A stretch of DNA of 64,000 nt from a virus, in IMG/VR virus record IMGVR_UViG_3300033512_000345, positions 1 through 64,000 of that record. The stretch is one strand, 5' to 3'. Both the position numbers and the translations under genes were made by a program. Positions 24,492-42,904 of this stretch are shown piece after piece (positions within the stretch are counted from its first letter, which is position 1; each line of letters starts with the position of its first letter). The notes beneath the pieces were generated by a model. The model was not told the origin of the DNA. It saw only the letters and a program-made list of their open reading frames with translations, and searched no databases.

Positions 24492-24767
24492 TTAGAAATC
24501 GAGGGGATTTTCCCCTCCGTAGAGCAGGTAGGTAGCAATGGCATCTGCCAAACAGGACGAAGCAAGCCATGCCATTTCATGAGAAACTTTGTGCTTCTCA
24601 ATGACATTGGCCATGTCGTGGAACAGAGCCAACATGAGTTCTTCATTGGCCTTGATCCGGGTTTTGAAGTCTGCTTCGTTCTCTCCGGGCAATGCTGCCA
24701 CCAACTGGGTCTGAAATTTGAGAAGACGTTCCTCGAGAGGAGCCGACTCGAATGGATTGGTTGCCAT
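24492..24767 (-). CDS. hypothetical protein ending in NPLDF
   Basis: Start trimmed to ATG at 24767 (AGGAGAACAA). 91 aa. Confidence 0.6.
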   Translation of the reverse strand: MATNPFESAPLEERLLKFQTQLVAALPGENEADFKTRIKANEELMLALFHDMANVIEKHKVSHEMAWLASSCLADAIATYLLYGGENPLDF

Positions 24768-24781
24768 TTGTTCTCCTGTTC

Positions 24782-28277: not shown

Positions 28278-29099
28278 TTAGAAGGGAACATCGTTGTAAA
28301 TTGCTTCCTCTTCATCCGAACTTTCGCCCGAAAGGGCGATACTATTTAATCGATTCTGGATAGATTTCATCATGGAAATGACTTTCTCCGGAGGAAGTTT
28401 TACCCCTTTTGGAAGTTCCTCAAGAGTCCGGATATAAACATCAATTAAATCTTGAATTTTATGAGTCTTGATCCAAACATCTTCTTCAGAATCTTGTTCT
28501 GTTGTTTCCAAATGTTCGTCGTCTGATAGGTAGAAATAGACGGCTTGATTCTTTTCAACACGTATAGACCATAGATCTCCTTGATCGTCTCCTTGGGCAA
28601 AAACTTCTCCTGTGCAATTGGATCCTGAAGGAAGAATAACATAGTTTAATAAAAACTCAAGCCATGGTTTGGCCTTTGTCAAATCTCCTTGTTCACTTAA
28701 GGTCAATTCAAGACCATCAGGACTGATAGAATAAGGAGCAACACAAAGAGGAACAAGAGAAGGGGTTGTTGTTTTGTTTGGATCTAGACGATACGCCCCA
28801 ACAGATTCCAGTTCCTGATTTGTAATTCCTATTGGCAACGCGTAAAGTTCTCCATTTGGACCAAACGGATGATCTATGGAAATATCATCCCAAGGATTAA
28901 ATCCGTTTGGAATCCGAGAGCTGAGATCAATCTTAGTAATCTCTCTTAGAAGCGGATGAACAGGACAATACCGAACATCAAGTTTCTGATTTGGCTTTGG
29001 TTGATGCAGGCGATGTAGTTGATGAAGAGTCTCCAGTACATGAGGGTTTTTGGGTTTCTTCTGGCTGGTATGGAGAAACCGATCCAACCATTCGGTCAT
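28278..29099 (-). CDS. hypothetical protein with SSB-tip-like C-terminus (SDEEEAIYNDVPF)
   Basis: Only the part downstream of about 29099 reads like protein. ATG at 29099 has no RBS and lies inside 28978..29775 (+1 frame), so the start is unresolved. Confidence 0.5.
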   Translation of the reverse strand: MTEWLDRFLHTSQKKPKNPHVLETLHQLHRLHQPKPNQKLDVRYCPVHPLLREITKIDLSSRIPNGFNPWDDISIDHPFGPNGELYALPIGITNQELESVGAYRLDPNKTTTPSLVPLCVAPYSISPDGLELTLSEQGDLTKAKPWLEFLLNYVILPSGSNCTGEVFAQGDDQGDLWSIRVEKNQAVYFYLSDDEHLETTEQDSEEDVWIKTHKIQDLIDVYIRTLEELPKGVKLPPEKVISMMKSIQNRLNSIALSGESSDEEEAIYNDVPF

Positions 29100-29775
29100 C
29101 TGTGGAGACAGGGGCGGTGAGATTGAGAAATTCCCCCAGGTTTTCGTTCGATAGCTCATGAGTCGTCTCCTTTTCAACAGGCAGCGTATCATGGATGTCC
29201 TTGACAGGGTTCCCCTGGTTGCTGGACTCGAGATACTTGTCTGCCTTGGCGTTCTGTTTGAGCATTTCGTCCGGTTCCAAGGTCTCACCGGTATGATTAT
29301 ATGACTGGGCACGCAGGATATCGACTGTGACATTGTGAACGAAAACACCCTCTGATTTGAGCTGACTGAATGTCTTTTGGTCAATCAGATCTGTCACGGT
29401 ATGTCCTTTATGGTTGACCCAATAGGCATATCGAACGGTAGTTTCCCCGGAAACGGTCAGGTCTCTATGGTAAGCATACCGGGAGATGGACATGATCTCA
29501 TCCTTCCAGATGCGACGGACCGGAGGATTTCCTGGATTATACGGAGAATTGTGGTTCACTGAAAGGATGAACTCTCTTCCTTCAACATCAGCCAAGATTC
29601 TTCCGGCTGACATCATTTCCAGGAGAGTCGTTCTTTCGTCCGAATTCTGCAGGTCAATACGAATCACATTCGGATTCACAGCAGGGGTCGGTTTGACCGC
29701 CTTGGTCTTGGCTTCTGCCTTTGCAAGTTCTGCAGGAGCCAGGATACTATCCAATGGATTGTCAACGTTTGTCAT
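28978..29775 (-). CDS. hypothetical protein with N-terminal NPLDSIL
   Basis: 265 aa. RBS AAGGAGGA. The last 40 codons overlap the next frame. Confidence 0.6.
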   Translation of the reverse strand: MTNVDNPLDSILAPAELAKAEAKTKAVKPTPAVNPNVIRIDLQNSDERTTLLEMMSAGRILADVEGREFILSVNHNSPYNPGNPPVRRIWKDEIMSISRYAYHRDLTVSGETTVRYAYWVNHKGHTVTDLIDQKTFSQLKSEGVFVHNVTVDILRAQSYNHTGETLEPDEMLKQNAKADKYLESSNQGNPVKDIHDTLPVEKETTHELSNENLGEFLNLTAPVSTDDRMVGSVSPYQPEETQKPSCTGDSSSTTSPASTKAKSET

Positions 29776-29788
29776 GATGAGATCCTCC

Positions 29789-30976
29789 TTATGATTTCTG
29801 AATGGCCGGCGTCATGTATTGGATGACGGCATCGGCCGGAAGGTGTTCGATGATCATAGCTCCGGGGCCAATCAGCTTGAATGTGACGGTGGACTCTCCT
29901 GACATCTTCAAACCGTCCAGCAAGTGAGAGACACGGAAGGAGCCATTCAGCTCGGTAGAGCTGGTTGTAGGCTGAAAGAAGAGTTTTTCCTGGACCATCC
30001 CGTTCTTGGACTTCATGTCAAAAGACAGGAGCGAATTCGCACTGTCCGAAACAAGTTCAACGGTTTGACTGGAGTTGTCCGATAAGGCCGACGCCATTTG
30101 GAGGAGGGAAGTAAACCGGGAGCGGCTAACGCTTCCTTCGAAAGAGAATGTCTGAGGAACCAAGGTTTTGCAGTTTGGGAAGCTGCCATTGGTTTTACGG
30201 AAGCCTACACAGAAGGCTCCATGAACAAGTTGAATTTCATGGGGTTCTTCGAAAACTTCAATCATGCCGGCAGAAGCCCCTGCAAACTTGGCGAAGCGGG
30301 ACAGCTTGGCGTGATCAAGGAAGAAAGTCCCCGAAGAGGTGACGTTCGTCATGATGGCAGGGAATGAAGCCTCATGAATCAACATCCGACGATCCTTGGA
30401 GTCAATGGCCTCAAACAGAAAACCCTTGGCCGGATCAATCGTTACCTGCAGGCAATTGAATGTCTGATAGGTATCATTGGGCTTGATGACCTGGTTGGCC
30501 AGATCCACGGCTTGCTTGAAGAGATTCCCCGGAATGTCCATGAGATAATTGGACGAAGGGGTTCCCAGAACAGGGAATGTTGTCGGATCCAGACCGCGGA
30601 TCACGGTGGCCAAGTTCGAGGCCGTATTAAGCTTGGATCCCAAGGGTTTGATCAGGACGGACAAAGGAGAGACCTCTTCCAAGAGGACATCTTTGGCGTC
30701 CAAGGCTTCCAGGACGGGAATCAGACGGTCAAATTCAATCAGCGGAAAGTATCCGATTCCGCTATTGGAAACGATGGTATGAGTGGGCAGCGTGCTCGTG
30801 GCCCATCCATCAAGAATGTTGACGGCATGAAGACGCACTTCTATCTGACTTCCAGTCGGATTGCAGGTTTCAATCAGAAGACAGCGTTCGGCCATACTGG
30901 TCTTCCCTGCTCCTGCATAGTTGCGAAGGGTCTTCAGAAATCCGAGAAGATACTGATGATTCAAACAAAGATTCAT
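29789..30976 (-). CDS. dnaN: probable DNA polymerase III beta sliding clamp
   Basis: 395 aa, the length of a three-domain clamp. The N-terminus (L..L......A.....IL..CLLIE......I.L.A) follows the DnaN pattern. The gene lies in the replisome gene block. Confidence 0.6.
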   Translation of the reverse strand: MNLCLNHQYLLGFLKTLRNYAGAGKTSMAERCLLIETCNPTGSQIEVRLHAVNILDGWATSTLPTHTIVSNSGIGYFPLIEFDRLIPVLEALDAKDVLLEEVSPLSVLIKPLGSKLNTASNLATVIRGLDPTTFPVLGTPSSNYLMDIPGNLFKQAVDLANQVIKPNDTYQTFNCLQVTIDPAKGFLFEAIDSKDRRMLIHEASFPAIMTNVTSSGTFFLDHAKLSRFAKFAGASAGMIEVFEEPHEIQLVHGAFCVGFRKTNGSFPNCKTLVPQTFSFEGSVSRSRFTSLLQMASALSDNSSQTVELVSDSANSLLSFDMKSKNGMVQEKLFFQPTTSSTELNGSFRVSHLLDGLKMSGESTVTFKLIGPGAMIIEHLPADAVIQYMTPAIQKS

Positions 30977-31713
30977 GGTTGCACCATTCCTTTCAATTGG
31001 CCTAGTAGTTTTCTTTCTTCACTTAAAGACAGGTGAAGCCTGACATCTTTAGCAACAGAGGTTGCATTGCACCTCGGACAGACTAGTTTTTGATGGCTCC
31101 CGTTGCGAATCAGATCAAGCAGATCGAGCCCTTCTTCGCTGACAAGGTTCCAGGCGTAAATGGAAGCCTTGGTGCCACAGTTGGGACACTTCAAAATGGA
31201 ATGAAAGTCTTGTAGAGAGGGCATCTTTGTGGCTCCGACATAAGCCTCCAAAGGAGTGGGGTTCAGGATGTTGTTCATGATATAAATCATTTCCTGCACG
31301 TCTTGTGTTTTCATTTGAGGGATATTTTTTAACAAGTTCATGCTAACAACCGGTTGGAAATCTCTGTCCAATTCCATCAAGAAGATATTGTCTTCAAGCT
31401 GTCCTGGACGATAATAACGATCTATGGCGGGGAAGGGGCCGGAAGCATTTGAGCGAAGATTGAATGGGATCTTAAGTTCACGAAGGGCTCCTGCAAAATG
31501 AGGAGGCAATCCATCTGGACAATCCTCTATATTGAGAGTGATCAAACCGTCTTTGGTGGTGGCACGAATCAAATACCCGTCCAGGTTTCGGTTTATGTCG
31601 TCACTAAGAGCCTGCTTCAAAAGTTTGTAGGCCTTGGTCTTTGGATTGAGAAAAGGCTCTTCCAATGTAACAAAACATACATCGGTCTTATATCCTTCTG
31701 GGATGGCAGCCAT
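30973..31713 (-). CDS. hypothetical protein with C-terminal zinc ribbon
   Basis: 246 aa with CPNCGT...CPRC. ATGA overlap with the clamp gene. Confidence 0.7.
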   Translation of the reverse strand: MAAIPEGYKTDVCFVTLEEPFLNPKTKAYKLLKQALSDDINRNLDGYLIRATTKDGLITLNIEDCPDGLPPHFAGALRELKIPFNLRSNASGPFPAIDRYYRPGQLEDNIFLMELDRDFQPVVSMNLLKNIPQMKTQDVQEMIYIMNNILNPTPLEAYVGATKMPSLQDFHSILKCPNCGTKASIYAWNLVSEEGLDLLDLIRNGSHQKLVCPRCNATSVAKDVRLHLSLSEERKLLGQLKGMVQP

Positions 31714-31761
31714 GGATTCACCTCCTTATGGGCATGGCCCGGAATCTTCAAAATTAGGGGA

Positions 31762-31788
31762 ACAAAAAGAGGGACCCGAAGGCCCCTC
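31762..31788 (-). terminator. rho-independent terminator after groES
   Basis: GAGGGGCC-UUCG-GGUCCCUC followed by UUUUUGUU. Confidence 0.7.
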
Positions 31789-31806
31789 CTTTTCAATCCT
31801 GAGGAA

Positions 31807-32094
31807 TCAAAGAACACAGAGAATGTCTCGTTCGTTCAGAACAATGAAAGTCTCTCCGTCCACTTCAATGGGAGATCCGGCAAAGTGTGCGTAAATGACT
31901 TCGTCTCCGACAGAAACTTGCATGGGACAAAGAGTTCCGTCTTCAAAACGAGCTCCCTGACCTACGAGAATAACTTTGCCACGATTGGTCGCTTCTTTTT
32001 CCCGACCAGGAATCACGATACCGGATTGGGTTTTCTCTTCGAGCTTGTGTTCCCTGACGAGACAACGAGCTCCGAGTACTTTGAGGTTTGGCAT
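31807..32094 (-). CDS. groES: GroES-type co-chaperonin
   Basis: 95 aa. It aligns along its length with bacterial GroES (K.LG.R.LV......EKT.SGIV.P......G.V..VG.G.....G......V.VGD.V.........I..DG....L.E.DIL.V). Confidence 0.88.
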   Translation of the reverse strand: MPNLKVLGARCLVREHKLEEKTQSGIVIPGREKEATNRGKVILVGQGARFEDGTLCPMQVSVGDEVIYAHFAGSPIEVDGETFIVLNERDILCVL

Positions 32095-32139
32095 ATTTGA
32101 TGGCCTCCTTGATGCAAGATGTTACAATTATAGCACAAT

Positions 32140-32829
32140 TCAAGGATGGAAAGCGAGCTCACAAGCCTTTCGAAGAACATTCCAAAGTTCATTCTTGTAG
32201 GCGGGATACAAGGGCGAAGGAGCTTTCAGCAGTTCCGTCGGATCTTTTCCAAACATGATCTGATAAGAGAAGTCTCCAATGTTGTATGTCGTGGGATGAG
32301 TCGGGATATCTTTGAGAAGGTAATCTGGATCAAAACCCAGATGATTCTGGGCCAGACGAGAATTTTCTTCTCCGAGCACCAGAAGCACTTTGGGTTGAAT
32401 CACCTGCAGCTCCCGTCCGAAATGCAAAGCAAAACAGATGTCTCCATACATAACAGACTTTGGGGACTTTGACATGGAGCACTTCCGGACGTTGGTCCGG
32501 TAAATCTGATCCATGGGATGGGGAAGATAAGACAGCAAGGCACTGAGAATCAAGTCTCCAGCCTTGTCCATGTCATCATCCCTGACGTAGGGTCCTCTGA
32601 GAATCATGAGAGGAGAAGAAGGAGAACCCATGGGGAGACGAATGTCTACCCCATGGATCATTGTGTCCGGACAAGAAGCACAGGACTTCCTGGTAATCAG
32701 GGTCTGCATCATCTCTCGATACCGGTCTTCTCTCTCGGACTGATTCATCACAGTTTCGAACAGGGGCAGGGACAAGCCCGCCCCATTTGTCATGATGTCT
32801 TGCAATCTCTCTCGAACAGATGAATCCAT
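32140..32829 (-). CDS. uracil-DNA glycosylase family-4-like protein with a degenerate active-site motif
   Basis: CASCP..., PLMILRGPYVRDDD (in place of the IVGEGPGEEED-type motif), AGDLILSAL, IYRTNVRKC and IQPKVLLVLGEE. Confidence 0.6.
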   Translation of the reverse strand: MDSSVRERLQDIMTNGAGLSLPLFETVMNQSEREDRYREMMQTLITRKSCASCPDTMIHGVDIRLPMGSPSSPLMILRGPYVRDDDMDKAGDLILSALLSYLPHPMDQIYRTNVRKCSMSKSPKSVMYGDICFALHFGRELQVIQPKVLLVLGEENSRLAQNHLGFDPDYLLKDIPTHPTTYNIGDFSYQIMFGKDPTELLKAPSPLYPAYKNELWNVLRKACELAFHP

Positions 32830-32840
32830 TGTGGTCCTCC

Positions 32841-33641
32841 TTAGAAAGGTTCGTCATCAGGAATCCCTGTAGGAGGAGTCAAAAGCTCATCCAGAGGGTT
32901 GCCGGAAGCCAAGGCGGACAAAGCTTCTTCTTTCATTTGTTCCAGGGTCTGGTCTGCAGCGTCCGGAGCAAAGGGGTCTTCGATCATGACATTGTTGGTC
33001 GCCATGACGGGCTCCGGAGCTTCATCGAGAACGGGAACCCCGAGCTCTTCTTCTGGAACGTCAGGAGTCGGATCCGGAAGAGTGACAGCGTTCGGGTCGG
33101 CAGCCATAGCTGCAGCGGCGGCATTCAGACGACGGGTCTCGGCAGCACGCTTGGCAGACTCGGAGCGTTTGGCCTTGGCCATCTCTTCTTCCGTCATGCC
33201 GGCAGCCTGAGCTTCGTCTTCGCGAAGAAGGGCCTGACCAATGATTTCTTCAGACTTAGCAATCGTTGCGGCGATCGCTGTGGTCTTCGGTCCGGAGCCT
33301 TGTTCCATCTTGATGATCATGCGGATGAGTTCGGCTTGGGACAGGTTCATCAAGTCAGGGCGAGCTTTTGCTGTGACACAGGTCACGCAGATGCCGTCTT
33401 CGTTGAGGTCAGCTGGTACGTTCAACGTTCCGCATTCCATACAGGCGACAACATCTACAGGCTGAGTCTCTGCTGTCAAGCTGGTACGACAACCAACACA
33501 AACCGTGGCCTCCCAACTATGAACGACGCCTTCCTTGACGACGACCGGCACATCGCTTCCTTCTTCGAAGTTGAACTGTGCCTTCTTCGTGATGTATCCA
33601 GCAAACATGGTACTGGACTTACAGATTGAACAAACTTTCAT
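32841..33641 (-). CDS. zinc-ribbon protein with an Ala/Glu/Pro-rich disordered C-terminal half ending in NPLDELLTPPTGIPDDEPF
   Basis: Start trimmed to ATG at 33641 (AAAGGAAGG). CSIC...CVGC...CMECG...CVTC. Confidence 0.7.
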   Translation of the reverse strand: MKVCSICKSSTMFAGYITKKAQFNFEEGSDVPVVVKEGVVHSWEATVCVGCRTSLTAETQPVDVVACMECGTLNVPADLNEDGICVTCVTAKARPDLMNLSQAELIRMIIKMEQGSGPKTTAIAATIAKSEEIIGQALLREDEAQAAGMTEEEMAKAKRSESAKRAAETRRLNAAAAAMAADPNAVTLPDPTPDVPEEELGVPVLDEAPEPVMATNNVMIEDPFAPDAADQTLEQMKEEALSALASGNPLDELLTPPTGIPDDEPF

Positions 33642-33795
33642 GGGATACCTTCCTTTCATTGAGGGGATAAGTAGTCTACGTCGGCCCGAAAGGGCCGGAC
33701 AACAAGACTCATAAGAGAATTTTGAAATAGAAATTTAGGACATGAACAACACGTCCTTTCTGGACATATGACCATCGAATACCGAAGAGAAAGAT

Positions 33796-34146
33796 TTAGC
33801 GATAACGCACACGTCCTGTCATCCGGATTAAAATCTTGAACCAGTAGAAAACAATCATCCAAAAGTCACCCCTATGGATCTCATCCCAAGCCGGAAGGAG
33901 AATGAAACGAAATCGACGACTTCGTATCCAATCTGTAAAAGAGTAAAACTCGTCAAATGACATACCAGAAGGACAATTTTTATGAATAATGTCCAAGCGA
34001 TGAAGAATCTGTTGAGACTGTTCACGGTTCAACTTAAAGAAGTGGAACCTGTAAGCCAGTAACAGAACAGATTTAAGAATGTCTATCGGGATCTTCGTCA
34101 TAAACAAAGACGGAAAGAGTTCTCCATATTTGTTACGCCATGGCAT
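33796..34146 (-). CDS. hypothetical basic/hydrophobic protein
   Basis: 116 aa. RBS TAGGAGG. Confidence 0.5.
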   Translation of the reverse strand: MPWRNKYGELFPSLFMTKIPIDILKSVLLLAYRFHFFKLNREQSQQILHRLDIIHKNCPSGMSFDEFYSFTDWIRSRRFRFILLPAWDEIHRGDFWMIVFYWFKILIRMTGRVRYR

Positions 34147-34157
34147 GACGGTACCTC

Positions 34158-34820
34158 CTATAAAGAATTTAACTGATCAATAGCGTTCTGTAATTGTTGA
34201 CGACGTTCATCTATCTTTTGCTGTTTGACCTGAGCAAGAGCATTGACAAGACTTTGCCTAAGATTTCGAACAGGATCTTTGACCTGGGCTTCCAGTTCTT
34301 TGATCCTGATTTTCTGAGCATTGATGATAGATAGAAATGCGTTGTCGCGAAATACAACAGAGTCCGGAGGTTCTCCTAATAATTTTTTGCCATTTGCATT
34401 TCGTTGCTGTGCCGCCCCTAATTGAGAGAAATACGCCATTAAAGCATGAGTAATGGCGTCAGACAGAACAATAGGGTCTTGATTATCTTCTGTACAGATC
34501 AAGAGTTTCCCCGTCATTGTATGAATTAGGTCAATTCTTTCTATTCGAGTAGCCATATGGGTATCGTATTTCATTTGAATCTCAGTATAGGTTCCTTGGT
34601 CAGAAGGAGTATTATTCCAATCAGGAGAGCGAATGGCGTATCCTTTATGAGAAATGTTAGTAGTCTCTGGAAGAGAGTGCCCCAAAATGGCGTCAATCGG
34701 TTGATACATCGGATTTGCAAAAACGAAAATCTGAGAAGGTTCCGGAATAAGTTCTGTTCGTTTCCGTTCTTGGAACTGAAAAGCCGCCGACGGGTCCGCA
34801 TTGAATCCCTTTGGTATCAT
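34158..34820 (-). CDS. hypothetical protein
   Basis: 220 aa. RBS AAGGAGG. Confidence 0.7.
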   Translation of the reverse strand: MIPKGFNADPSAAFQFQERKRTELIPEPSQIFVFANPMYQPIDAILGHSLPETTNISHKGYAIRSPDWNNTPSDQGTYTEIQMKYDTHMATRIERIDLIHTMTGKLLICTEDNQDPIVLSDAITHALMAYFSQLGAAQQRNANGKKLLGEPPDSVVFRDNAFLSIINAQKIRIKELEAQVKDPVRNLRQSLVNALAQVKQQKIDERRQQLQNAIDQLNSL

Positions 34821-34831
34821 TTGAAACCTCC

Positions 34832-35764
34832 TTAAGGTTCGATATTGTTGTCAACAAACTCCAGTGATTTCTGGATTTGGGTTCGAAGTACCTGCATATA
34901 GGTTCCCATGAGACCTTCATACTCTTGAACCTTAGTCTGAAGTTCACGGAATTTCAATACATAGGTTTTTGCGGTGGACTGAGGAATTGTTTGTTTTAAT
35001 GTGATAACACCCTTGAGTTCTTCAACAAACTGATTCATTTCTCCCTTGATGTCGTCCTTTGCCATACGATCTACAAGATCTCTTTGCTCGTCGGTATCGA
35101 TGACCGGGATGATCTCGAAGGCGTTTCCTGTTCCAAATCGGGCCAAATCCCTGACGACTCCTTGAAGAGCATAAAGATTACCTTGCTGCGTTTTAGGAAT
35201 AAACTTCGCAACTCCGGACGGCATCAGGTTGACAGGATACAGGCTCTTGATGATTGAAACGGCCAAATTCCGGACCGTGTCCTTCGTATGATAGACAGAC
35301 CAGTCCTGAAAACGGGATTGAACGTCCTTGAGTACGTTTTCGTAGTCGTACTCGGTAGCATAGACGGCGTTGGCTCCTGTTGTTACGACGTTGGCTCCGC
35401 GTACAAAATCGATGCGACCCACTGTCTCATAAGAGACCTCGGCCTGATTGTCGTCGACGATCTTGCGACCCAGCAGGCGAACAATGCCCGACTGGTCACA
35501 GCGGACTTCGTCCACTTCCAGCTTGGCCTTGACCTTTTGTCCGTTGTAGTCGACTTCGATCGTGCTTTTGGCTGCCGAAGTCGCCCGGCGGAATGCGTCA
35601 ATCTTGGAGATCTTCTTGATGAAATGCCGGGGCAGGCCGTTGTTGTCGAAGATCTGCTCGAGTTCCGTCTCCGAAATCCGAAGGTCTCCAATGGTGTAGA
35701 AAGACAAATGGCCCAGAATCATCTGGGGGTCAAGGTCTTTGTTGCTTCTAGCGATACCGTTCAT
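34832..35764 (-). CDS. hypothetical protein
   Basis: Start trimmed to ATG at 35764 (AAGGAGGAA). 310 aa. Confidence 0.7.
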   Translation of the reverse strand: MNGIARSNKDLDPQMILGHLSFYTIGDLRISETELEQIFDNNGLPRHFIKKISKIDAFRRATSAAKSTIEVDYNGQKVKAKLEVDEVRCDQSGIVRLLGRKIVDDNQAEVSYETVGRIDFVRGANVVTTGANAVYATEYDYENVLKDVQSRFQDWSVYHTKDTVRNLAVSIIKSLYPVNLMPSGVAKFIPKTQQGNLYALQGVVRDLARFGTGNAFEIIPVIDTDEQRDLVDRMAKDDIKGEMNQFVEELKGVITLKQTIPQSTAKTYVLKFRELQTKVQEYEGLMGTYMQVLRTQIQKSLEFVDNNIEP

Positions 35765-35809
35765 AAATTCCTCCTTGCCGCAGACACGCGGCATCCGGTT
35801 TTAATATGG

Positions 35810-35974
35810 TTAGTAATAGTTCCGTCCTAGTACTTTTGTTGTCAGCTCACGTCTGTATGTCTTGTGTCGAAAGATATTGCATCGATAAAATAACCTACGA
35901 AAGAGCCCTGTTTTGACTTTTAATGCTTGGCATCTTCCATTGTGTTCTCTGCGACAATTGAAGCAGTCTGCCAT
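35810..35974 (-). CDS. small basic Cys-rich protein (54 aa)
   Basis: ATG at 35974 after AGGAGGA, with a TAATG overlap to the upstream stop. MADCFNCRREHNGRC. Confidence 0.45.
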   Translation of the reverse strand: MADCFNCRREHNGRCQALKVKTGLFRRLFYRCNIFRHKTYRRELTTKVLGRNYY

Positions 35975-36183
35975 TATCGGTCCTCCTGATGTTTTAGGGG
36001 CTGGTCTCGTCTCTGCATTGCCTTTAAGCAGACTTTGCATGTCACGCTTTCTGATGTCTTGACACCGCCTCCAATAAAGCTTTTTCCGCAAAGCGATATG
36101 CTTATTGTCTCTCCGCTGAACGCGTGAACCATCGACGTGTAATACCGTTTGATTCGCGGAAATCTATGTACGTACTTGGTCAT
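35974..36183 (-). CDS. small Cys-containing protein
   Basis: Start trimmed to ATG at 36183 (GAGGTGGA). Confidence 0.5.
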   Translation of the reverse strand: MTKYVHRFPRIKRYYTSMVHAFSGETISISLCGKSFIGGGVKTSESVTCKVCLKAMQRRDQPLKHQEDR

Positions 36184-36213
36184 TATCCACCTCATATGAA
36201 TCAGTCTAGATTC

Positions 36214-36495
36214 TTAGTCCATCCATTCGTGTATACGCCAGAAAGGCCAAGTGATTGCCCATATGATCCACAGCAAGTATATTAGAGCAATCAATCCGAC
36301 CATCTGCCCGCCACATTTGATAAACAACCAAGTCAGATGCAAAGTTTCCTTTCCGCCGCCATGTTTCGTAATTTGATGGAATGACGCCTTGCAGACATAT
36401 GCTCGATTTGCCAATCCTTCAGCAAACCAGCCCTCTGCAGTTGTTGTGTGACTGTATTCACAGATTAAGCATGTTCCGCCTCGCGTGTATTTCAT
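36214..36495 (-). CDS. tail-anchored small membrane protein
   Basis: 93 aa with CLIC near the N-terminus and a Trp-rich hydrophobic C-terminal helix. RBS GAAGGAG. Confidence 0.6.
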   Translation of the reverse strand: MKYTRGGTCLICEYSHTTTAEGWFAEGLANRAYVCKASFHQITKHGGGKETLHLTWLFIKCGGQMVGLIALIYLLWIIWAITWPFWRIHEWMD

Positions 36496-36513
36496 TTCTG
36501 TACTCCTTCTTGA

Positions 36514-36801
36514 TCATCTCTCAATGATTCTTACCATGGCTGCAACCTTTTCAGGTTCCCATCCTTTTTCAAGAAGAGATTCCGGCCAACCGGATCGAGT
36601 ACGAGAGATCAACTGCTCTCTAGACAGCCAATTTCCCTGTTCGTCGGTAACGTAAGGATTGGATCCGGGAAGAACCATTTCTTCAGTCAAACAGGCAAGA
36701 CTTTCGTATTCCGCCTTGGCTCGCATAGCAATGGATAATTCATATTTGGAAATCTCTCCAGGCTGTTCGACGCGATCTCCTCTAACAATAAATCCGTACA
36801 T
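36514..36801 (-). CDS. hypothetical protein
   Basis: Start trimmed to ATG at 36801 (TAGGAGGA). Confidence 0.6.
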   Translation of the reverse strand: MYGFIVRGDRVEQPGEISKYELSIAMRAKAEYESLACLTEEMVLPGSNPYVTDEQGNWLSREQLISRTRSGWPESLLEKGWEPEKVAAMVRIIER

Positions 36802-36809
36802 AATTCCTC

Positions 36810-37859
36810 CTATAAAAAGACCACGTCGTATCCGCGGTCCTTGAGAACCGAACCGATGATGGCTCGATGACAGAATGATTCCGATGGGCAAAAACAGACC
36901 ATCGTGATGTTGACCCCTTCGTTGAGGGTCGCAATAACATGCTTCATGGATTTGATCAGGTCTTCTCGAGTTCTCATTTCTTCGAGGAATTCCGGAAGGT
37001 ACAACCACCACCAGGCTGTCTTTTCTTGAGTGGAATGTCCGCTTTGGCGAATCCTCTCAATCTCCTTGGGGTCAAACTTTCCTTCCTTCCACTTGTAATA
37101 CCGGCTGAATAAATAAGCCGACGGAGATAGAGAAGGAACCAATTTAAGCCTGTATTTCTCGACGGCAGAAGTTGAAGATGTAGTTGGTTTGCGAACAATG
37201 AATAATCTTTTTCCTTGAAGATCCCAGTCGATTTTGTCGAGCTTCTGGATTCCTGTCAGGGTCAAGACGCCTTTTTTCTGGTAAAAGAACGGACTGTCCG
37301 GAGGAATCGCCACAATGGGGCGAACATACTGTTTAGGAAACGGCTTGAAGATGACCTCGAGTTCAGGCTCGAGGTCATCCCAAGAACTCCAGCTCTGATC
37401 AACCGCAGGATCTGAAAGGAAAGGATCCATGATCCAGACGGCATTGGTTTTCTTCTGGGTCGTCATGTTCCAATGTTTCTGATGAATGCTTTGAGCCTGA
37501 GACGCGATGGTCTTCAAGGAAGTTTGCATCAGAAGCAGGTTTTTGGCCGCAGATTGAGGTTTGCCAATGACAGCCAGCATGATATGGACAGTGATCGGTT
37601 CAACGAGATTGCCGACTGTTCGATTGTAATCCAAAGTCTTTATTGTACCAGCCTCAAGCTTTGTAAGGAACTTATCCATATAGGAACGAAGTTCAGAAGG
37701 CGTGAGCTCTTTCGGAAATGCATTGAGCAATTCCTTGAAGTTTCGACGAGAGGCTGGAAGAGAAAGATAGTTGCCGGTTGCGTCCGTATAGACGGGGAGA
37801 ACAATGACATTGTTGGAAGAGAGTTGTTCGAGAGGAAACTTTGTGACAACAGTATCCAT
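36810..37859 (-). CDS. two-part protein with a DUF488-like C-terminal domain
   Basis: Start trimmed to ATG at 37859 (AAAGGAG). The C-terminus ...NITMVCFCPSESFCHRAIIG..L matches the L.C.E....CHR signature of DUF488. Confidence 0.55.
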   Translation of the reverse strand: MDTVVTKFPLEQLSSNNVIVLPVYTDATGNYLSLPASRRNFKELLNAFPKELTPSELRSYMDKFLTKLEAGTIKTLDYNRTVGNLVEPITVHIMLAVIGKPQSAAKNLLLMQTSLKTIASQAQSIHQKHWNMTTQKKTNAVWIMDPFLSDPAVDQSWSSWDDLEPELEVIFKPFPKQYVRPIVAIPPDSPFFYQKKGVLTLTGIQKLDKIDWDLQGKRLFIVRKPTTSSTSAVEKYRLKLVPSLSPSAYLFSRYYKWKEGKFDPKEIERIRQSGHSTQEKTAWWWLYLPEFLEEMRTREDLIKSMKHVIATLNEGVNITMVCFCPSESFCHRAIIGSVLKDRGYDVVFL

Positions 37860-37888
37860 GATCTCCTTTCCGCGGACGCGGCCGCAAA

Positions 37889-38317
37889 TTACCAAGTGTA
37901 TTTTTTGTAATCGAGGGTGAGTTCGACCTCATCAGAGTCGATAACCTTCAGCTTAAAGGCAATAGCTGCGTCACAATAGGAGTCCTCCCATGCAACAGTC
38001 AGTTCGTCATAGACAACAGGATAGGCAACAGCTCCTTTAGCTAACCATCCGTCCTTCTTGTGGCGAATCTGTGTTTGTACGCATTCAAGTAACGGATCCA
38101 TATCGTCTTTCCAGGAATCGATCGTTTGTTTCATTTGAGAGATGGCCGATCTGATTTCTTCGTGTGTTGAAGATCTGTTTTGGCCATGAAAGTCGTATCC
38201 GGCAGAGTCGTTAGGGAACTCTGCTTGGTTTTGAACTTTTCTTTGAAGTTCTTCCCAGTCAGCCGTGATGAGTATTCGCTTGTGATCAATAAATACAGGA
38301 ATTCTTATTATAGACAT
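37889..38317 (-). CDS. hypothetical protein
   Basis: 142 aa. RBS GAGGAGGA. Confidence 0.7.
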   Translation of the reverse strand: MSIIRIPVFIDHKRILITADWEELQRKVQNQAEFPNDSAGYDFHGQNRSSTHEEIRSAISQMKQTIDSWKDDMDPLLECVQTQIRHKKDGWLAKGAVAYPVVYDELTVAWEDSYCDAAIAFKLKVIDSDEVELTLDYKKYTW

Positions 38318-38326
38318 AATTCCTCC

Positions 38327-38965
38327 TCAAAATGACACAGTCACTTGAGGGATCACGCGAACTCCCTTTACGATGACAGGCATCTCACTTCCCAGATGTT
38401 CTTTGATGAAGGCGGCCAAAGCTTCTTCTGTGGGAAAAAACTTGACGGACCTGGAACCAACAACAAAGAACCCTTCTCCGGAATTTTGATCCCAGTCGAG
38501 AACCTCTGTTGTTGTAAGAGGCTTTACAGCCGGAGTCTGAATGTGCCGGTTGGACGCCGCGGAGAGCCCTTCAGAGAGTCTCTGTGCGAAATCGGATAAC
38601 GGAGGAGTTGAAGTGGCCGGAGCGACCGATTTTGCCGCAATCCCAGCATCCAGTTCGACGCCCTTTGCTTGTGCCTGCTGTTCTTCCGTGAAGGTAGTCT
38701 TCAGGGCTTCTGCAAGAAACTTGGAAATGTCCTGAAAACGCTCTGCCTGTTCTGTGATCAAGGCGATGGCTTCTGTTCGAATTCCTTCGTCGTTGGCTGC
38801 TTTTACTTCTGCGGCAATCATGCCTTGAAGTTTTTCAAGATTGGTCTTTGCATCTGGGATCAGCTTGGCTCGGTCTCCTGCCGGCTTGGCGAGATCCTCA
38901 AGAACAACAAAGATTTGCTCATAAGCTTTCTGGCATTTCTCCAGAAAGGGATTTGTAATCGTCAT
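38327..38965 (-). CDS. hypothetical protein
   Basis: 212 aa. RBS AAGGAGGA. Confidence 0.7.
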   Translation of the reverse strand: MTITNPFLEKCQKAYEQIFVVLEDLAKPAGDRAKLIPDAKTNLEKLQGMIAAEVKAANDEGIRTEAIALITEQAERFQDISKFLAEALKTTFTEEQQAQAKGVELDAGIAAKSVAPATSTPPLSDFAQRLSEGLSAASNRHIQTPAVKPLTTTEVLDWDQNSGEGFFVVGSRSVKFFPTEEALAAFIKEHLGSEMPVIVKGVRVIPQVTVSF

Positions 38966-39306
38966 GATAGGTCCTCCTTATTATCGACAACAGCAGCGAA
39001 CCTGCCGATCATTTTGGTCAGGTATTCTCTTTGTTCTTCCTTGGTCCGATCTTTGAAGTCACATGGAAGAGTAATGACTGCAAGTCTTTTCTGAGATTCA
39101 CGTTTCAGACGGTTTTGCTCCCGGAACATTTCAATCATGCCAAACAAGATCAAGCCAATGCAAATGAAATCCGCAAGAACTTCCGGGATAGATTGAGGTG
39201 TCCAGTTGAAACCTTGGATAGTGTCACGGCCAAACCAAAAGGATTCGATCAGATTCAAGATAAGACCAAGGAACACCCAGAAGAAAGGATGAGGTGATTT
39301 TTTCAT
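38962..39306 (-). CDS. membrane protein
   Basis: Start trimmed to ATG at 39306 (TAGGAGGG). Two hydrophobic helices followed by a charged tail. Confidence 0.6.
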   Translation of the reverse strand: MKKSPHPFFWVFLGLILNLIESFWFGRDTIQGFNWTPQSIPEVLADFICIGLILFGMIEMFREQNRLKRESQKRLAVITLPCDFKDRTKEEQREYLTKMIGRFAAVVDNKEDLS

Positions 39307-39317
39307 GTAAAACCCTC

Positions 39318-39506
39318 CTATAGGCCATCTCCATATCCCAGGATGAAGCCCAAAAATGTACTGAAAACACACAGCAGGACGGCCCAGACAAAAGTGTCCG
39401 GGACCGCCTTATAACTGTGATAGATAAGCATGGCCATCAAAATCGAAGCCAGGGTGATCAGGAGAACAAACAAGAGCATCTTGTAAAACCGCTGTCTTTC
39501 TTCCAT
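39318..39506 (-). CDS. small two-helix membrane protein
   Basis: 62 aa. Starts 3 nt after the vWA stop. Confidence 0.55.
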   Translation of the reverse strand: MEERQRFYKMLLFVLLITLASILMAMLIYHSYKAVPDTFVWAVLLCVFSTFLGFILGYGDGL

Positions 39507-39509
39507 GAG

Positions 39510-41396
39510 TCAGACCCCATTGAAGATTTGATGGGCGGATTCGGAATCGTCATTGGTCAAGTCTGCCAGGTTTGAAACCCGGATGACCTCATCAGAGAAC
39601 ACTTCCAGCGTCCTGTCCGAAACAGAACCGCCACCGGCATCCACCAGGATGGACCTGCAGACGAATTCCTTTTCGTCCTTGGTTCTCTTGAATTCTTTCA
39701 GGAAGGTTTCTCCCACGCTGCAATCACCATCTGTGATGAACGTGATGTCCGCCTTCTTGAACCGGGAGTCCGTAATCAGCTTCATGGACTCCCGCAAGGG
39801 AGCTTCGAAGTTGGTACCGCCTCCGCGGAACTTTTCTGCGATGTCGACGATCTTGTTCGGAGAGAGTTCGTCCTTTTCGATGATGATCACGTCTGTGACC
39901 GAAGACTCGAACAGGATACAAGCATAGTCTCTCTTTTGAATCTGAGCGATTTCAAGCAGGGCGATCGCAATGGCTTTGGACCATTTCTCACGAGGCCCCT
40001 GCATGGAACCGGACACGTCGACGCAGACAATCATCGGACCCTTCTTCTTCTTGTTGGTTGATTCCAACTCATAGATCAGGAGTTCCTTCTGGTTGTATCT
40101 GCGATAGAAGTCCGTCTTTGTGACAGGGTTAGCCAGCTTCATCATTTCAGAAGGCAGGATGGACTCAATTCGGTTGCCCGTCTTGACTGACTTGATGGAG
40201 GTTGCTCCATCCTTAGTCTTCTGCTTCTGGTCTTTTATGGCGGACTGGACAAACCGACCAATCAGATCGGACATTTCTTTGAGTTTCTTGGAACGACGAA
40301 TACGCTCGAGTGCCTGACGTTTGTCGTCCAGAGAAACACGAATGGTCTCTCCGGGGTTCATCCCCCATTGGTCGATCAGCTCACGGATTTCGGAGACTTC
40401 CTCGTCAGCCTGCTTGAAGGCGTTGGAGACCTGACTTACAATATCGTCCATGATCTGTTCTCCCAGATCATCTTCAAGAATGTCATCCAGTTCGTTACCA
40501 AGTTCTTCTGCAATCTTCTGAGCCGTCTGAAGGTCCATTTGTCCTTGAGTCAAACGATTTTCCATAGCTTTGAGCTGTTCCGGGTCTGTATTGGCTTGAT
40601 TCTGCATTTCTTCAATGATGTCTTCGAGGTTGTCGATATTTTCCTGCAGGTCTTCAATGTTCTGTTCCGCCTGGACCAGAGCATTGACGGTTTCAAAAGG
40701 ATCTCCCTGCTCAAATGGATCCTGTTGGCCGGACTGTCCCTTCTGACCTTTTTGTCCGGGTTGCCCTTTTTGTCCTTTCTGTTTGGCTTTCTGCTGGCGA
40801 CGCCGTTCCTTTTCATTGAGGATGATTTCCATGGCTCTCTGCCCAACCACTTCTGTTCCCATGGCAGAAGCCAGTGCGTCCAATTTGCAGCTTTGACGGA
40901 GACGACGGTAATCCGGAGTTTCCGTGAGCCGCTTCATCATTTCATGGTTGAACTGGGCCGACTTCTTCATGTCTTCTACAGGACGGACTTCCGGCTTGTA
41001 TTTGAACAAGGACATGAACATGTCTTCGTTCAGCGTATCAAAAGGTTTATATTCATGGACTCCTTGAGATACTGCTTGTTGAATGACCGGAGACTGATCA
41101 TAAATATCCGCATAGAGATCCCGGTCGATCTCAAAATGCTTGACAGCTAGATCATGTTTGACCAAGGCTTCGTTGGTGTTCGTCAAATTGAGGATGTCTG
41201 CGACACTATCGCCTTGGAAATTCAAGAGCTTCTGATTGGTCTCAAACGATACTTCAGAATCTTCTGCTGGTTGATCGGGCACCGGACCTGCCGAAGGGAA
41301 AAATCCTCCGTTCTGGGTAGCTTCTTCAGGAGAAGTCAGTCCAAGGAAGTCCAGGAAATCTTCAAGGTTGTCAGCAGGTCCATTTTGTGATGTCAT
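39510..41396 (-). CDS. CobT-like von Willebrand factor A domain protein
   Basis: 628 aa. The C-terminal vWA domain has MIDAS VCVDVSGSMQG. An acidic coiled-coil middle region carries a short Gly-X-Y run. Confidence 0.85.
   Translation of the reverse strand: MTSQNGPADNLEDFLDFLGLTSPEEATQNGGFFPSAGPVPDQPAEDSEVSFETNQKLLNFQGDSVADILNLTNTNEALVKHDLAVKHFEIDRDLYADIYDQSPVIQQAVSQGVHEYKPFDTLNEDMFMSLFKYKPEVRPVEDMKKSAQFNHEMMKRLTETPDYRRLRQSCKLDALASAMGTEVVGQRAMEIILNEKERRRQQKAKQKGQKGQPGQKGQKGQSGQQDPFEQGDPFETVNALVQAEQNIEDLQENIDNLEDIIEEMQNQANTDPEQLKAMENRLTQGQMDLQTAQKIAEELGNELDDILEDDLGEQIMDDIVSQVSNAFKQADEEVSEIRELIDQWGMNPGETIRVSLDDKRQALERIRRSKKLKEMSDLIGRFVQSAIKDQKQKTKDGATSIKSVKTGNRIESILPSEMMKLANPVTKTDFYRRYNQKELLIYELESTNKKKKGPMIVCVDVSGSMQGPREKWSKAIAIALLEIAQIQKRDYACILFESSVTDVIIIEKDELSPNKIVDIAEKFRGGGTNFEAPLRESMKLITDSRFKKADITFITDGDCSVGETFLKEFKRTKDEKEFVCRSILVDAGGGSVSDRTLEVFSDEVIRVSNLADLTNDDSESAHQIFNGV
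40722..40778 (-). repeat. in-frame triplet repeat encoding KGQKGQPGQKGQKGQSGQQ (collagen-like G-Q-X)
   Basis: Codons read directly: GGA CAA AAA GGG CAA CCC GGA CAA AAA GGT CAG AAG GGA CAG TCC GGC CAA CAG. A duplicated DPFEQGDPFE follows. Confidence 0.7.
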
Positions 41397-41422
41397 AATT
41401 CACCTCTTCCTTTCATGAAAAT

Positions 41423-41448
41423 GGGGAGTGGCCAGACGACCACTCCCC
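41423..41448 (-). terminator. hairpin plus AUUUUCAU between the AAA+ and vWA genes
   Basis: GGGGAGUGG-loop-CCACUCCCC. Confidence 0.5.
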
Positions 41449-41464
41449 CGGGAGAGAGGTCGGT

Positions 41465-42904
41465 TTAGAAGGGCATTCCTGTGGAAATCCCGGTCTTCAA
41501 ACCGAGATCCGACATGGTAAGACCCAATGCATCAGAGACGACCTTCTCGTTCTCTTCGGTCAGATAGGCCCTTTTCTTGACCATATCCGTAGTGTCTTTA
41601 CCGTTCTCGTTAGCCTCGTTAATGGTTTTGGTCATCTTCTTAATGAGATCCTCGAGGCGGCCCTTGGCTTCAATCGAAGCTCCACAACGATCGTTGGGAT
41701 CCGTGATGCCTCTGATCTTGTTGATGACTTCAACGCCCTTCTTGTAGTTGTTGTTGATTTCATCATCATAAGGATTCACGAGCTTGTCGATTTCAGCGGA
41801 AACAAGCGGAATGTCCTTCTTCTGTTCCCAGAGGACAGACTTCAACGCATTGAAGTCATCGAGAACAACCTGCGTTCTTCCGCAATATAGGGCATTACCC
41901 TGCATGATGCGATAGCATTCGTTCTGACGACGATCGGAAACGACAATCCCAATCTTGTCCAGAGTATTTAGAAGCTTGGCAAAGCTCTTGTAAACCGAAG
42001 TGTTGACCGGCATCCTGCGGGAAGCAATACGGATAGCTTCCAGTTCCAGAATCGTGATCGTTGTCCGCTTGGCATTCACCATCGAGCCGTTCATTTCGGC
42101 GACGAAGTTTTGGTGCATGCGGGAACGATTGCTAGGCTCTTTGACATAGTCGACAACCGTACGAAAAACCAATCGGTCATGAAGAGCACGGAGAGAATCA
42201 TCTTCCGGTTCTTCATTCGAAGCGGCAATCACGGAGATCAACGGAACCTTGATGGCCTTGCCGTCATTGAAGACGAGACGCTCGTTCAGCAAAGGCAGCA
42301 GGATATTCAGGGTAGGTTCATTGGATTTGTAGATTTCATCCAGGAAGGCAATGTGGGCTTCAGGAAGCTTGCCCTTCATCTTACGAAGGAACTTGTCCTG
42401 TTCCATGCTCTTGATGGAATACGGGCCAAGGATTTCCGCCGGATCCGAAGTTCTGTTCAACAGCCATTCGAAGAAGATACCCATTTCAATACGAGAACAG
42501 ATCTCTCTGGCCATAGCGGACTTTGCTGTGCCGGGAGGTCCGAGAAGCAGCATATGCTGTCCAACCAGAATGGCCCGGATCAGGTCTTTGATGACAGAGT
42601 CTCTTTCCACGAATTTGGTGTTGATTTCCGATTCGATGGCTTGTAGTTTGGCCACGCCCCCGATGGCAATCGTGATGATTTCATTGTCGGGAAGATTGGA
42701 AATGGTCTGAGAAGCATTCGGATCCTGCATGGAAGCAGGTGCCACTGTGGAAGGTTTCTGGTATTCGGACAGGTTCATAACGGCACTGGCTGCCGGCGGA
42801 TTCTGGACAACCGGTATGGTTGTCGGCTTCTGTGTCGGCATGGTCGTCGAGATCCCCAATTCAGCGAGGATGTCGTCCGTCTGGGACAAGTTGCTGGAAC
42901 TCAT
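41465..42904 (-). CDS. MoxR/CobS-like AAA+ ATPase
   Basis: 479 aa. Walker A LLLGPPGTAKS and Walker B IAFLDEIYKSN. About 100 aa of low-complexity N-terminal extension. Ends ...GMPF. Confidence 0.85.
   Translation of the reverse strand: MSSSNLSQTDDILAELGISTTMPTQKPTTIPVVQNPPAASAVMNLSEYQKPSTVAPASMQDPNASQTISNLPDNEIITIAIGGVAKLQAIESEINTKFVERDSVIKDLIRAILVGQHMLLLGPPGTAKSAMAREICSRIEMGIFFEWLLNRTSDPAEILGPYSIKSMEQDKFLRKMKGKLPEAHIAFLDEIYKSNEPTLNILLPLLNERLVFNDGKAIKVPLISVIAASNEEPEDDSLRALHDRLVFRTVVDYVKEPSNRSRMHQNFVAEMNGSMVNAKRTTITILELEAIRIASRRMPVNTSVYKSFAKLLNTLDKIGIVVSDRRQNECYRIMQGNALYCGRTQVVLDDFNALKSVLWEQKKDIPLVSAEIDKLVNPYDDEINNNYKKGVEVINKIRGITDPNDRCGASIEAKGRLEDLIKKMTKTINEANENGKDTTDMVKKRAYLTEENEKVVSDALGLTMSDLGLKTGISTGMPF

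Follow-up and report, generated by a model that had tools for sequence, protein, structure and literature searches.

In bacteria, the acidic tip that closes SSB (single-stranded DNA-binding protein) serves as the main docking peptide for genome-maintenance enzymes, and it is usually treated as a hallmark of SSB itself. What, then, does it mean when several proteins of one phage end in such a tip? The question is raised by positions 1 to 64,000 of the IMG/VR virus record IMGVR_UViG_3300033512_000345, a 64-kb stretch (the window hereafter) of an uncultured phage genome of ~200 kb. Five proteins in the window end in Pro-Phe (PF), the canonical SSB and four others. We read these tips as a shared C-terminal docking peptide that would make its carriers adaptors or competitors at the SSB hub, and we assign this reading a probability of about one half. 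The best-supported carrier, judged from sequence comparison, is a zinc-ribbon protein (ZnR). The five proteins are as follows, with sizes in amino acid residues.

23939-24436, minus strand: SSB, 165 residues (Pfam SSB, E 1.7e-9; phrog_44, E 4.6e-20)
28278-29159, minus strand: pA, 293 residues, phrog_38666 family (HMMER homologues), between clamp and DnaE
32841-33641, minus strand: ZnR, 266 residues (eight invariant Cys, PDB profile matches)
41465-42904, minus strand: MoxR-type AAA+ ATPase, 479 residues (bpMoxR, E 8.9e-49; phrog_19600, E 5.9e-107; AAA_5, AAA_lid_8)
60890-61537, minus strand: p240, 215 residues, possible divergent second SSB-like protein (weak SSB similarity)

Results

Occurrence of Pro-Phe Ends

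The tails read DEDDIPF for SSB, SSDEEEAIYNDVPF for pA, TGIPDDEPF for ZnR, GISTGMPF for MoxR and NITNDEEAPF for p240, each with Pro-Phe at the extreme C-terminus (DDIPF, NDVPF, DDEPF, TGMPF and EEAPF). A preliminary description of the locus had pointed to SSB-tip-like ends on SSB and three further proteins. All four tails are present in the sequence, and the three named carriers stand, but the list missed the fifth protein at 60890-61537 (NDEEAPF). Four of the five tails, those of ZnR, pA, p240 and SSB, are acidic, with a net charge between -3 and -5 over their last 12 residues; MoxR (+1) is the exception.

The proposed count against chance was run on the window and bears out an excess. PF ends occur in 5 of the 100 minus-strand open reading frame (ORF) products, compared with 0.21 expected by composition (binomial P 2.5e-6). 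When random internal positions of the same proteins were taken in place of the ends, 0 of 5000 resamples reached five (mean 0.33). In loci of distantly related DnaE phages, 8/1848 ORF products (0.4%) end in PF; of these eight, three bear acidic tips of the classical SSB type, and another four represent a single small ORF in several copies. Non-coding ORFs on the plus strand of the window yield PF ends in 2 of 190 cases. The excess on the minus strand argues for a real short linear motif under selection in the acidic PF ends.

Architecture of SSB and ZnR

SSB of this phage comprises an oligonucleotide/oligosaccharide-binding (OB) fold, a Gly/Gln/Ala-rich linker and the tip GFYNIDEDDIPF (last seven codons at 23942-23962), of which P164 and F165 are invariant in an alignment with 10 relatives. 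ZnR, whose start at 33641 fits an AGGAAGG ribosome-binding site as well as the N-termini of its homologues, has four CxxC pairs followed by a helical segment, then a basic patch and finally an acidic, Ala/Pro-rich tail of ~140 residues. Its eight cysteines lie within about 95 residues and are invariant in seven homologues, and a PDB profile search with ZnR matched generic zinc ribbons only. Neither a Pfam scan nor hhalign against SSB gave an SSB or OB signal. The basic patch is AT-hook-like in relatives (KKRRGRPKK), with a weak match to Pfam AT_hook. The tail holds an internal EDPFAPD, then NPLDELL and finally the tip TGIPDDEPF (codons 32844-32870). That a disordered acidic/Ala/Pro linker precedes this tip had been suggested before, and charge-hydropathy composition, by which we called disorder, supports it for residues ~131-272 (in the numbering of the 272-residue ORF). 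This region aligns poorly and contains many indels.

The layout of ZnR appears to be that of an SSB, with a nucleic-acid-binding module, an acidic disordered linker and a tip, in which zinc ribbon and basic patch replace the OB fold. Because it combines this layout with the lack of an OB fold, ZnR is best read as an adaptor. An acidic PF element also occurs inside the tail, as EDPFAPD in the window and as QQEAPFPEM in relatives (L001:4238-5035, L023:3649-4437, L009:4599-5495).

Conservation of the ZnR Tip and Its Match to the Cognate SSB Tip

Our comparison covers ~8 jumbo-phage genomes (loci are given by L numbers), which were recovered by profile scans with DnaE, SSB, MoxR and GroES; the SSB-profile scan found no further genomes beyond those already recovered. 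DnaE of the window is ~45-47% identical to that of related jumbo phages, and megablast with 20 kb of the window found no DNA-level match to phage genomes. A single-sequence search with ZnR returned no homologues, and a profile search recovered only the tip-less subclade of the family that is described below. The tip is present in the ZnR of the window and of five relatives, at a ZnR identity of only 23-26%. The ends of the relatives are given below.

L001: ZnR GFQMFDDGDEPF; SSB GFAMFDEGESPF
L023: ZnR VFPMFDEDGGSF; SSB GFSMFDEGESPF
L009: ZnR PFQMFDNEQSF; SSB NFQMFGEQEFPF
L107: ZnR GFTMFDNEQSF; SSB NFQMFGEDNFPF
L112: ZnR GFNMFDASDDDEPF; SSB NFSMFDESNSPF

In these relatives, the ZnR tip mirrors the form of the cognate SSB tip, F-x-M-F-D...[PS]F, with a match that spans 11 residues. 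In the window, the F-x-M-F element is absent from both tips. When the ends of the 20-29 other proteins of a locus are scored against its ZnR end, that of SSB comes first in 5/5 relatives, a count that overstates independence because the relatives are few (~8 genomes), with sister pairs among them. Ranked likewise in the window, the SSB end is 4th of 83, behind an acidic end without terminal PF (...YEHAPE, 51242-52063) at rank 1 and the PF tails of p240 and MoxR at ranks 2 and 3. Within one genome, the codons of the ZnR and SSB tips differ at synonymous sites. A recent transfer of the 3' end of SSB to ZnR by DNA copying is thereby ruled out, and selection on the peptide is indicated instead.

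Across the family, 6 of ~14 ZnR members carry the tip, and they form a basal grade on the DnaE tree. This neighbour-joining tree places the window outside the remaining clade members. ZnRs without a tip (L003, L004, L007 and L010 as well as the database proteins P0001-P0004) form one clade, whose members end in a conserved MNPPEE. Since these form one clade and the window is an outgroup, one ancestral gain of the tip followed by one loss or replacement is the simplest history, in which ZnR would have carried the tip ancestrally in this jumbo-phage clade. A joint loss of the ZnR and MoxR tips was considered and is ruled out by L007, whose MoxR ends in ...SDDENF while its ZnR has no tip.

These tips bear directly on the proposal that the tails are decoys, which would titrate ExoI, RecQ, PriA, chi, Ung and other enzymes from host SSB and thereby disable repair or defence, or redirect the enzymes. 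The window tips DDEPF, NDVPF and EEAPF do resemble the generic bacterial DDDIPF, and the ZnR tip of the window scores higher against the E. coli tip, which may not be that of the host, than against that of its own SSB. An SSB-like phage protein with an FDDDIPF end has moreover been proposed to interfere with host ExoI (bioRxiv 10.64898/2026.04.29.721553). Three considerations nevertheless favour an adaptor over a host decoy. The ZnR tip of the relatives tracks the extended F-x-M-F...[PS]F form of the phage SSB; the phage depends on a tipped SSB of its own, which a pure decoy would antagonise by competition; and the carriers are conserved multi-domain proteins of the replication module with domains of their own, not small dedicated inhibitors. 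Titration of host SSB partners is, on this evidence, less likely than an adaptor role, and we consider it clearly unlikely.

The MoxR ATPase and Its VWA Partner

MoxR is a complete AAA+ module with its lid, according to Pfam. It adjoins a protein with a von Willebrand factor A (VWA) domain.

39510-41396, minus strand: VWA-domain protein, 628 residues, MoxR partner (Pfam VWA_2, E 3.3e-9; VWA_CoxE, E 3e-8)

The MoxR tails of relatives are often more SSB-like than that of the window and include GEDEDIIPF (L112), DDDSDSPW (L001), SSDDGDLF (L009), SDGSDLF (L107) and SDDENF (L007). From these ends, MoxR appears to carry the tip recurrently in the clade. The preliminary description had named a lack of conservation in homologues as the observation that would speak against its idea; the tails are conserved in ZnR and partly in MoxR, and that of pA is the only one for which such a lack was found.

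The VWA protein contains a motif resembling a metal ion-dependent adhesion site (MIDAS), DVSGS...GGGTNF...ITDGD, as read from the translation. In every relative, the MoxR-VWA pair keeps synteny with ZnR, clamp, DnaE and SSB, and the MoxR-VWA block is found in Bacillus phage 0305phi8-36 as well. This arrangement invites another explanation, in which the ends are tags for a different machine, read either by the MoxR-VWA pair, with the MIDAS binding the carboxylate, or as a C-terminal degron. Apart from the synteny, it could draw on the intact VWA motif (DxSxS...T...D; VWA_2, E 3.3e-9) and, for a degron, on Streptococcus mutans, where the LPF end of SsbA suffices for degradation by ClpXP. The LPF degron is reportedly strain-dependent and unrecognised in the other bacteria tested (PMC5143411). 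The VWA protein is tied to the tails by nothing but gene proximity, and the 11-residue match to the SSB tip in relatives exceeds the needs of a generic acidic tag. We regard a tag of this kind as improbable.

The N-termini of the VWA proteins are acidic and hydrophobic, with ADNLEDFLDFLGL in the window, MGDDELFDDDLF in L107:3655-5514 and MAVDDLFANINL in L112:4717-6453. These peptides may be another terminal short motif of the module.

pA and the Overlapping pB

For pA, the 28278 gene had been bounded at 29099 in the preliminary description. A start at ATG 29159 is likelier, as an AAGGAG site lies 8 nt upstream and the resulting N-terminus, MSYRTKTWGNFSISPPL..LDRF, fits the family N-terminus MGYxxxFxGxFxxNxxL..YLDRF. 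Searched exhaustively with HMMER, 1.84 billion representative proteins yielded seven distant homologues matching phrog_38666, a family of unknown function, and locus scans found no pA relatives in viral contigs. The acidic PF tail of pA (SSDEEEAIYNDVPF, codons 28281-28319) is absent from all seven homologues, and the tip appears to be specific to this phage.

A structure model of pA built with the homologues (AlphaFold2, AF2) has a confident alpha/beta core at a moderate overall predicted local distance difference test score (pLDDT) of 57.6. Tail residues 282-293, which follow a helix, fall below 50, and these last 12 are the only low-confidence stretch. The model has no OB match in PDB or BFVD and no PDB match at all; its sole match among predicted viral structures is an uncharacterised Tupanvirus protein. 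By hhalign against the SSB alignment, pA gave nothing (E 0.75).

At this point, the simplest alternative has to be weighed, namely that phage replication proteins often have acidic disordered tails and that PF arose among these a few times by chance or neutral drift, without shared function. The pA tail, found in no homologue, would fit this, as would the non-acidic MoxR tail of the window and the PF ends of 2/190 non-coding plus-strand ORFs. The enrichment (P 2.5e-6) and the recurrence of the MoxR tail in several genomes speak against it, and for ZnR it is disfavoured by a tip that has persisted where DnaE identity is down to ~45% and that varies together with the tip of SSB. As an account of the ends, chance seems quite improbable.

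pA overlaps a second ORF, pB (28978-29775), by 182 nt in a different frame, and both look real. Codon usage favours the upstream frame, that of pB, to ~29080, while homology places the pA start at 29159. The public gene call of pA has 186 residues from TTG 28838 (P0007) and drops the conserved N-terminal region. A single frameshifted gene made of pB and pA is ruled out by the ribosome-binding site of pA and its family-like N-terminus. In relatives, a small gene lies between clamp and DnaE; the idea that it is the missing partner was rejected, as it encodes an HNH endonuclease (L001:9474-9998, L023:9468-9995, L009:9483-9992).

p240 and the Possibility of Cryptic SSBs

p240 carries a Thr/Val/Ala-rich linker before its tip NDEEAPF. 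Its sole homologue (L092:4125-4787, 43% identity) ends in GEECPFL, and locus scans found no p240 relatives in viral contigs. BLASTP against the SSB of L010 gave E 0.002-0.007, with an alignment that is collinear over the OB core. Smith-Waterman z-scores reach 4.9-5.7 against this SSB only, above all 300 shuffles; for the ten remaining SSBs of the clade they range from -0.03 to 2.8. There was no Pfam or PDB sequence match for p240, and its AF2 model, with the element order beta-beta-alpha-beta-beta, has a pLDDT of 40, too low for a meaningful fold search. The hhalign P of ~0.002 is uninformative, for the p240-SSB alignment scored no better than a ZnR-SSB alignment that made no sense. By these similarities, p240 may be a divergent second SSB.

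Could all tip carriers then be extra SSBs with hidden OB folds? The collinearity of p240 with one clade SSB and the element order of its low-confidence model point in this direction for p240. For ZnR, pA and MoxR the explanation fails, because these are assigned to zinc-ribbon, alpha/beta and AAA+ folds without an SSB match, including none in Pfam. Some 95 residues of ZnR hold the eight invariant cysteines and match zinc ribbons alone, the alpha/beta core of pA has no OB match and an hhalign E of 0.75, and MoxR is accounted for by its AAA+ module and lid. Cryptic OB folds had been named in advance as an observation that would undo the idea; they may exist in p240, and the other three carriers show no sign of them. 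As a general explanation, hidden OB folds are hardly credible.

A Second Reused Motif

A second short motif, [ND]PLD-x0-1-[LI][LF], recurs in the window. It is found at the C-terminal end of DnaE (24782-28171, ANPLDLLFSQA), at the C-terminal end of a small protein between DnaE and SSB (24492-24785, ENPLDF), in ZnR 12 residues before the tip (GNPLDELL) and at the N-terminus of ORF 28978-29775 (MTNVDNPLDSIL); a DPLD variant, DPLDSLF, lies near the C-terminal end of ORF 10750-11277. A scan for NPLD found three occurrences (DnaE, the small protein and ZnR) compared with 0.24 expected in 20.9k residues, and the fourth, in ORF 28978-29775, was read directly from the translation. In relatives, DnaE ends in F-x-x-[IL]-F. 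The NPLD motif resembles a beta-clamp-binding motif; set beside the QL[SD]LF clamp motifs, clamp binding of [ND]PLD-x-[LI][LF] is conjectural.

Genome Setting and Replication Block

All genes in the window are coded on the minus strand, and the tip carriers belong to a replication and recombination block. Its further members are as follows.

5635-7563, minus strand: NAD-dependent ligase
7560-8777, minus strand: DnaG-type primase
11187-13532, minus strand: SbcCD-like nuclease
14303-14794, minus strand: dUTPase
17476-19368, minus strand: UvrD-type helicase
20670-21872, minus strand: RecA
24782-28171, minus strand: DnaE-type replicative polymerase, 1129 residues, ending in ANPLDLLFSQA (homology to jumbo-phage DnaE)
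29789-30976, minus strand: beta-clamp-like processivity factor, 395 residues (DNA_pol3_beta_3, E 2.4e-5, under the curated cut-off; phrog_947, E 6.9e-8)
31807-32094, minus strand: GroES
32140-32829, minus strand: weak uracil-DNA glycosylase (UDG)-superfamily-like protein, directly downstream of ZnR (Pfam UDG, E 0.0071, under the cut-off)
34832-35794, minus strand: DUF6744 protein (E 2.2e-38)
36810-37895, minus strand: DUF488-N3a domain protein (E 3.3e-14)
44187-45971, minus strand: SNF2 helicase

The DUF488-N3a and DUF6744 proteins lie inside the replication block, and the latter is 38-40% identical in relatives and sits just upstream of ZnR in all of them. No tRNA genes were found within the 64-kb window. 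Mobile elements flank DnaE in relatives, the DnaE regions of L002, L013, L038 and L112 among them. In L001, L023 and L009, the HNH endonuclease gene stands between clamp and DnaE. DnaE itself is interrupted by inserted ORFs in several relatives and by an annotated intron in 0305phi8-36.

Discussion

If the tips are a shared docking peptide, a free C-terminus after a flexible segment would let each tail dock in the pocket or pockets that receive the SSB tip. Tipped proteins would either be drawn to a replication hub organised by SSB or hand off or compete there, and ZnR would bring tip-binding enzymes to a different DNA substrate. We infer from the sequences that the tips bind the same receptor as the SSB tip, that this receptor may be of phage or host origin and that the role is that of an adaptor. 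Candidate receptors are tip pockets on phage or host enzymes (DnaG-type primase, UDG-like protein and DnaE are encoded here), a putative basic patch on the DnaE polymerase, proposed by analogy with T7, and, more speculatively, the MIDAS site of the VWA protein.

The receptor could also be SSB itself. In this alternative, the DNA-free OB fold of phage or host SSB would take up the tips and thereby tether ZnR, pA and MoxR to the SSB pool or its condensates, or modulate ssDNA (single-stranded DNA) binding, and the downstream partners of SSB would not be shared. The E. coli SSB tip does bind the OB fold at the ssDNA site, although with weak affinity. Co-variation of the tips, which we cite for the docking-peptide reading, would likewise be expected if the receptor were a co-evolving SSB core. 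SSB droplets take up the isolated tip peptide in enriched amounts, and they take up eGFP once it bears a tip, but only under crowding by polyethylene glycol (PMC7584906). This portability of the tip also speaks for the docking-peptide reading. We judge SSB as the receptor to be possible, though unlikely.

Several observations weigh against a shared docking peptide in general. Since one ZnR subclade ends in MNPPEE instead, ZnR can function without the tip. The window ZnR tip (IPDDEPF) is as close to the generic bacterial tip as to the phage's own, and because it resembles both, host- and phage-directed roles are not separable in this phage. MoxR ends without a terminal aromatic residue (GGAFDI, an acidic ...DDND and TLGN) in L102, L004 and L010, and the tail of the window MoxR is not acidic. 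The tail of pA, absent from all its homologues, could be a recent accident. To these come the limited independence of the rank comparison and the fact that the shared receptor is deduced from sequences.

A wider version of the docking-peptide reading is that the clade turned the SSB tip into a general address label. ZnR would then be a surrogate SSB at sites other than ssDNA, and together with tipped MoxR and the other carriers it would act on the SSB interactome of phage or host by recruitment, competition or recycling. We put this forward tentatively, as doubtful but worth keeping in view.

If the docking-peptide reading is true, the SSB hub would be open to access, sharing or regulation by proteins that lack OB-fold-mediated ssDNA binding. 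Orphan phage proteins (ZnR, MoxR-VWA, phrog_38666) would gain a handle, and a peptide pull-down should reveal the partner. Matching C-terminal ends to the cognate SSB tip would become a simple search for replisome accessory factors. Phage 0305phi8-36 offers a culturable system for a genetic test of the idea.

Comparison with Known Systems

Bacillus phage 0305phi8-36 (NC_009760) is the closest cultured relative. Its MoxR is 41% identical to that of the window, and the order of MoxR (gp66), VWA (gp63), UDG (gp43), GroES (gp41), clamp (gp39), gp38 and DnaE (gp240) is syntenic with the window, with the uracil-DNA glycosylase gp43 in the position of the weak UDG-like protein. Three non-SSB proteins of its replication region have acidic ends with a final aromatic residue: gp38 (ISDDDEF), gp70, annotated as RecQ (VVSDDDEW), and gp18 (SVDDEDF).

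L094:37079-37765: gp38, between clamp and DnaE, as pA
L094:16087-17961: gp70, with a Lys-rich stretch just before the end
L095:4761-5411: gp18, with a Lys-rich stretch just before the end

We found no significant similarity that would make gp38 a homologue of pA or pB. Unlike the tips of the window, those of 0305phi8-36 are D/E-rich with a terminal F or W and have no penultimate Pro. The OB-like gp32 ends in ...NYFDEEDED without a terminal aromatic residue, and the position that corresponds to ZnR is occupied by no homologue of it; gp44, found there, is a different, extremely acidic protein.

Phage T7 provides the nearest precedent. Its gp5 polymerase has a front basic patch that is contacted by two acidic C-terminal tails, those of the gp4 helicase and the gp2.5 SSB, and the C-terminal phenylalanine of gp2.5 is essential (PMC12593628, PMC12339929). 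The phage studied here resembles T7 in that an acidic flexible tail closes both its SSB and a replisome protein other than SSB. This combination, with a C-terminal aromatic residue, holds in the window and its relatives, and we extend it to 0305phi8-36. The systems differ in their machinery, as T7 combines a family-A polymerase with a gp2.5-type SSB, whereas this phage has a DnaE-type polymerase and a bacterial-type SSB (Pfam SSB). They also differ in the tip, which is of the bacterial Pro-Phe type here, and in the carriers, a helicase in T7 and a zinc-ribbon protein, an AAA+ MoxR and a phrog_38666 protein in our case.

A second precedent is the phage protein Bas52_0087, which has two predicted OB folds, a FDDDIPF tip and a proposed interface with host ExoI (bioRxiv 10.64898/2026.04.29.721553). 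It shares with the carriers described here a conserved SSB-type tip on a phage protein other than the canonical SSB. Unlike ZnR, pA and MoxR, it is SSB-like with OB folds, and p240 may be its closer analogue. The earlier statement that no phage strategy of this kind was known thus needs qualification in view of T7 and Bas52_0087, while it holds for a Pro-Phe tip on non-OB proteins in the literature searched. In the literature covered by full-text searches, no protein lacking an OB fold was reported to carry a bacterial-type SSB tip.

The bacterial SSB C-terminus shares with the tips described here its place at the extreme C-terminus, a terminal Phe, a penultimate Pro, upstream acidic residues and a disordered linker. 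The difference from the bacterial hub is that here the tip sits on proteins without a detectable OB fold, whose binding to SSB partners is putative. Beta-clamp motifs (QL[SD]LF) offer a parallel of another kind, in that one terminal peptide is reused by unrelated proteins for one hub, although motif and hub differ. The principle of tail sharing is therefore already known, and a network of proteins sharing the tip of a bacterial-type SSB at its hub is not described in the literature searched. What is new in the present case is the Pro-Phe tip of the bacterial type, the new carrier families and the co-variation of the tip with that of the cognate SSB.

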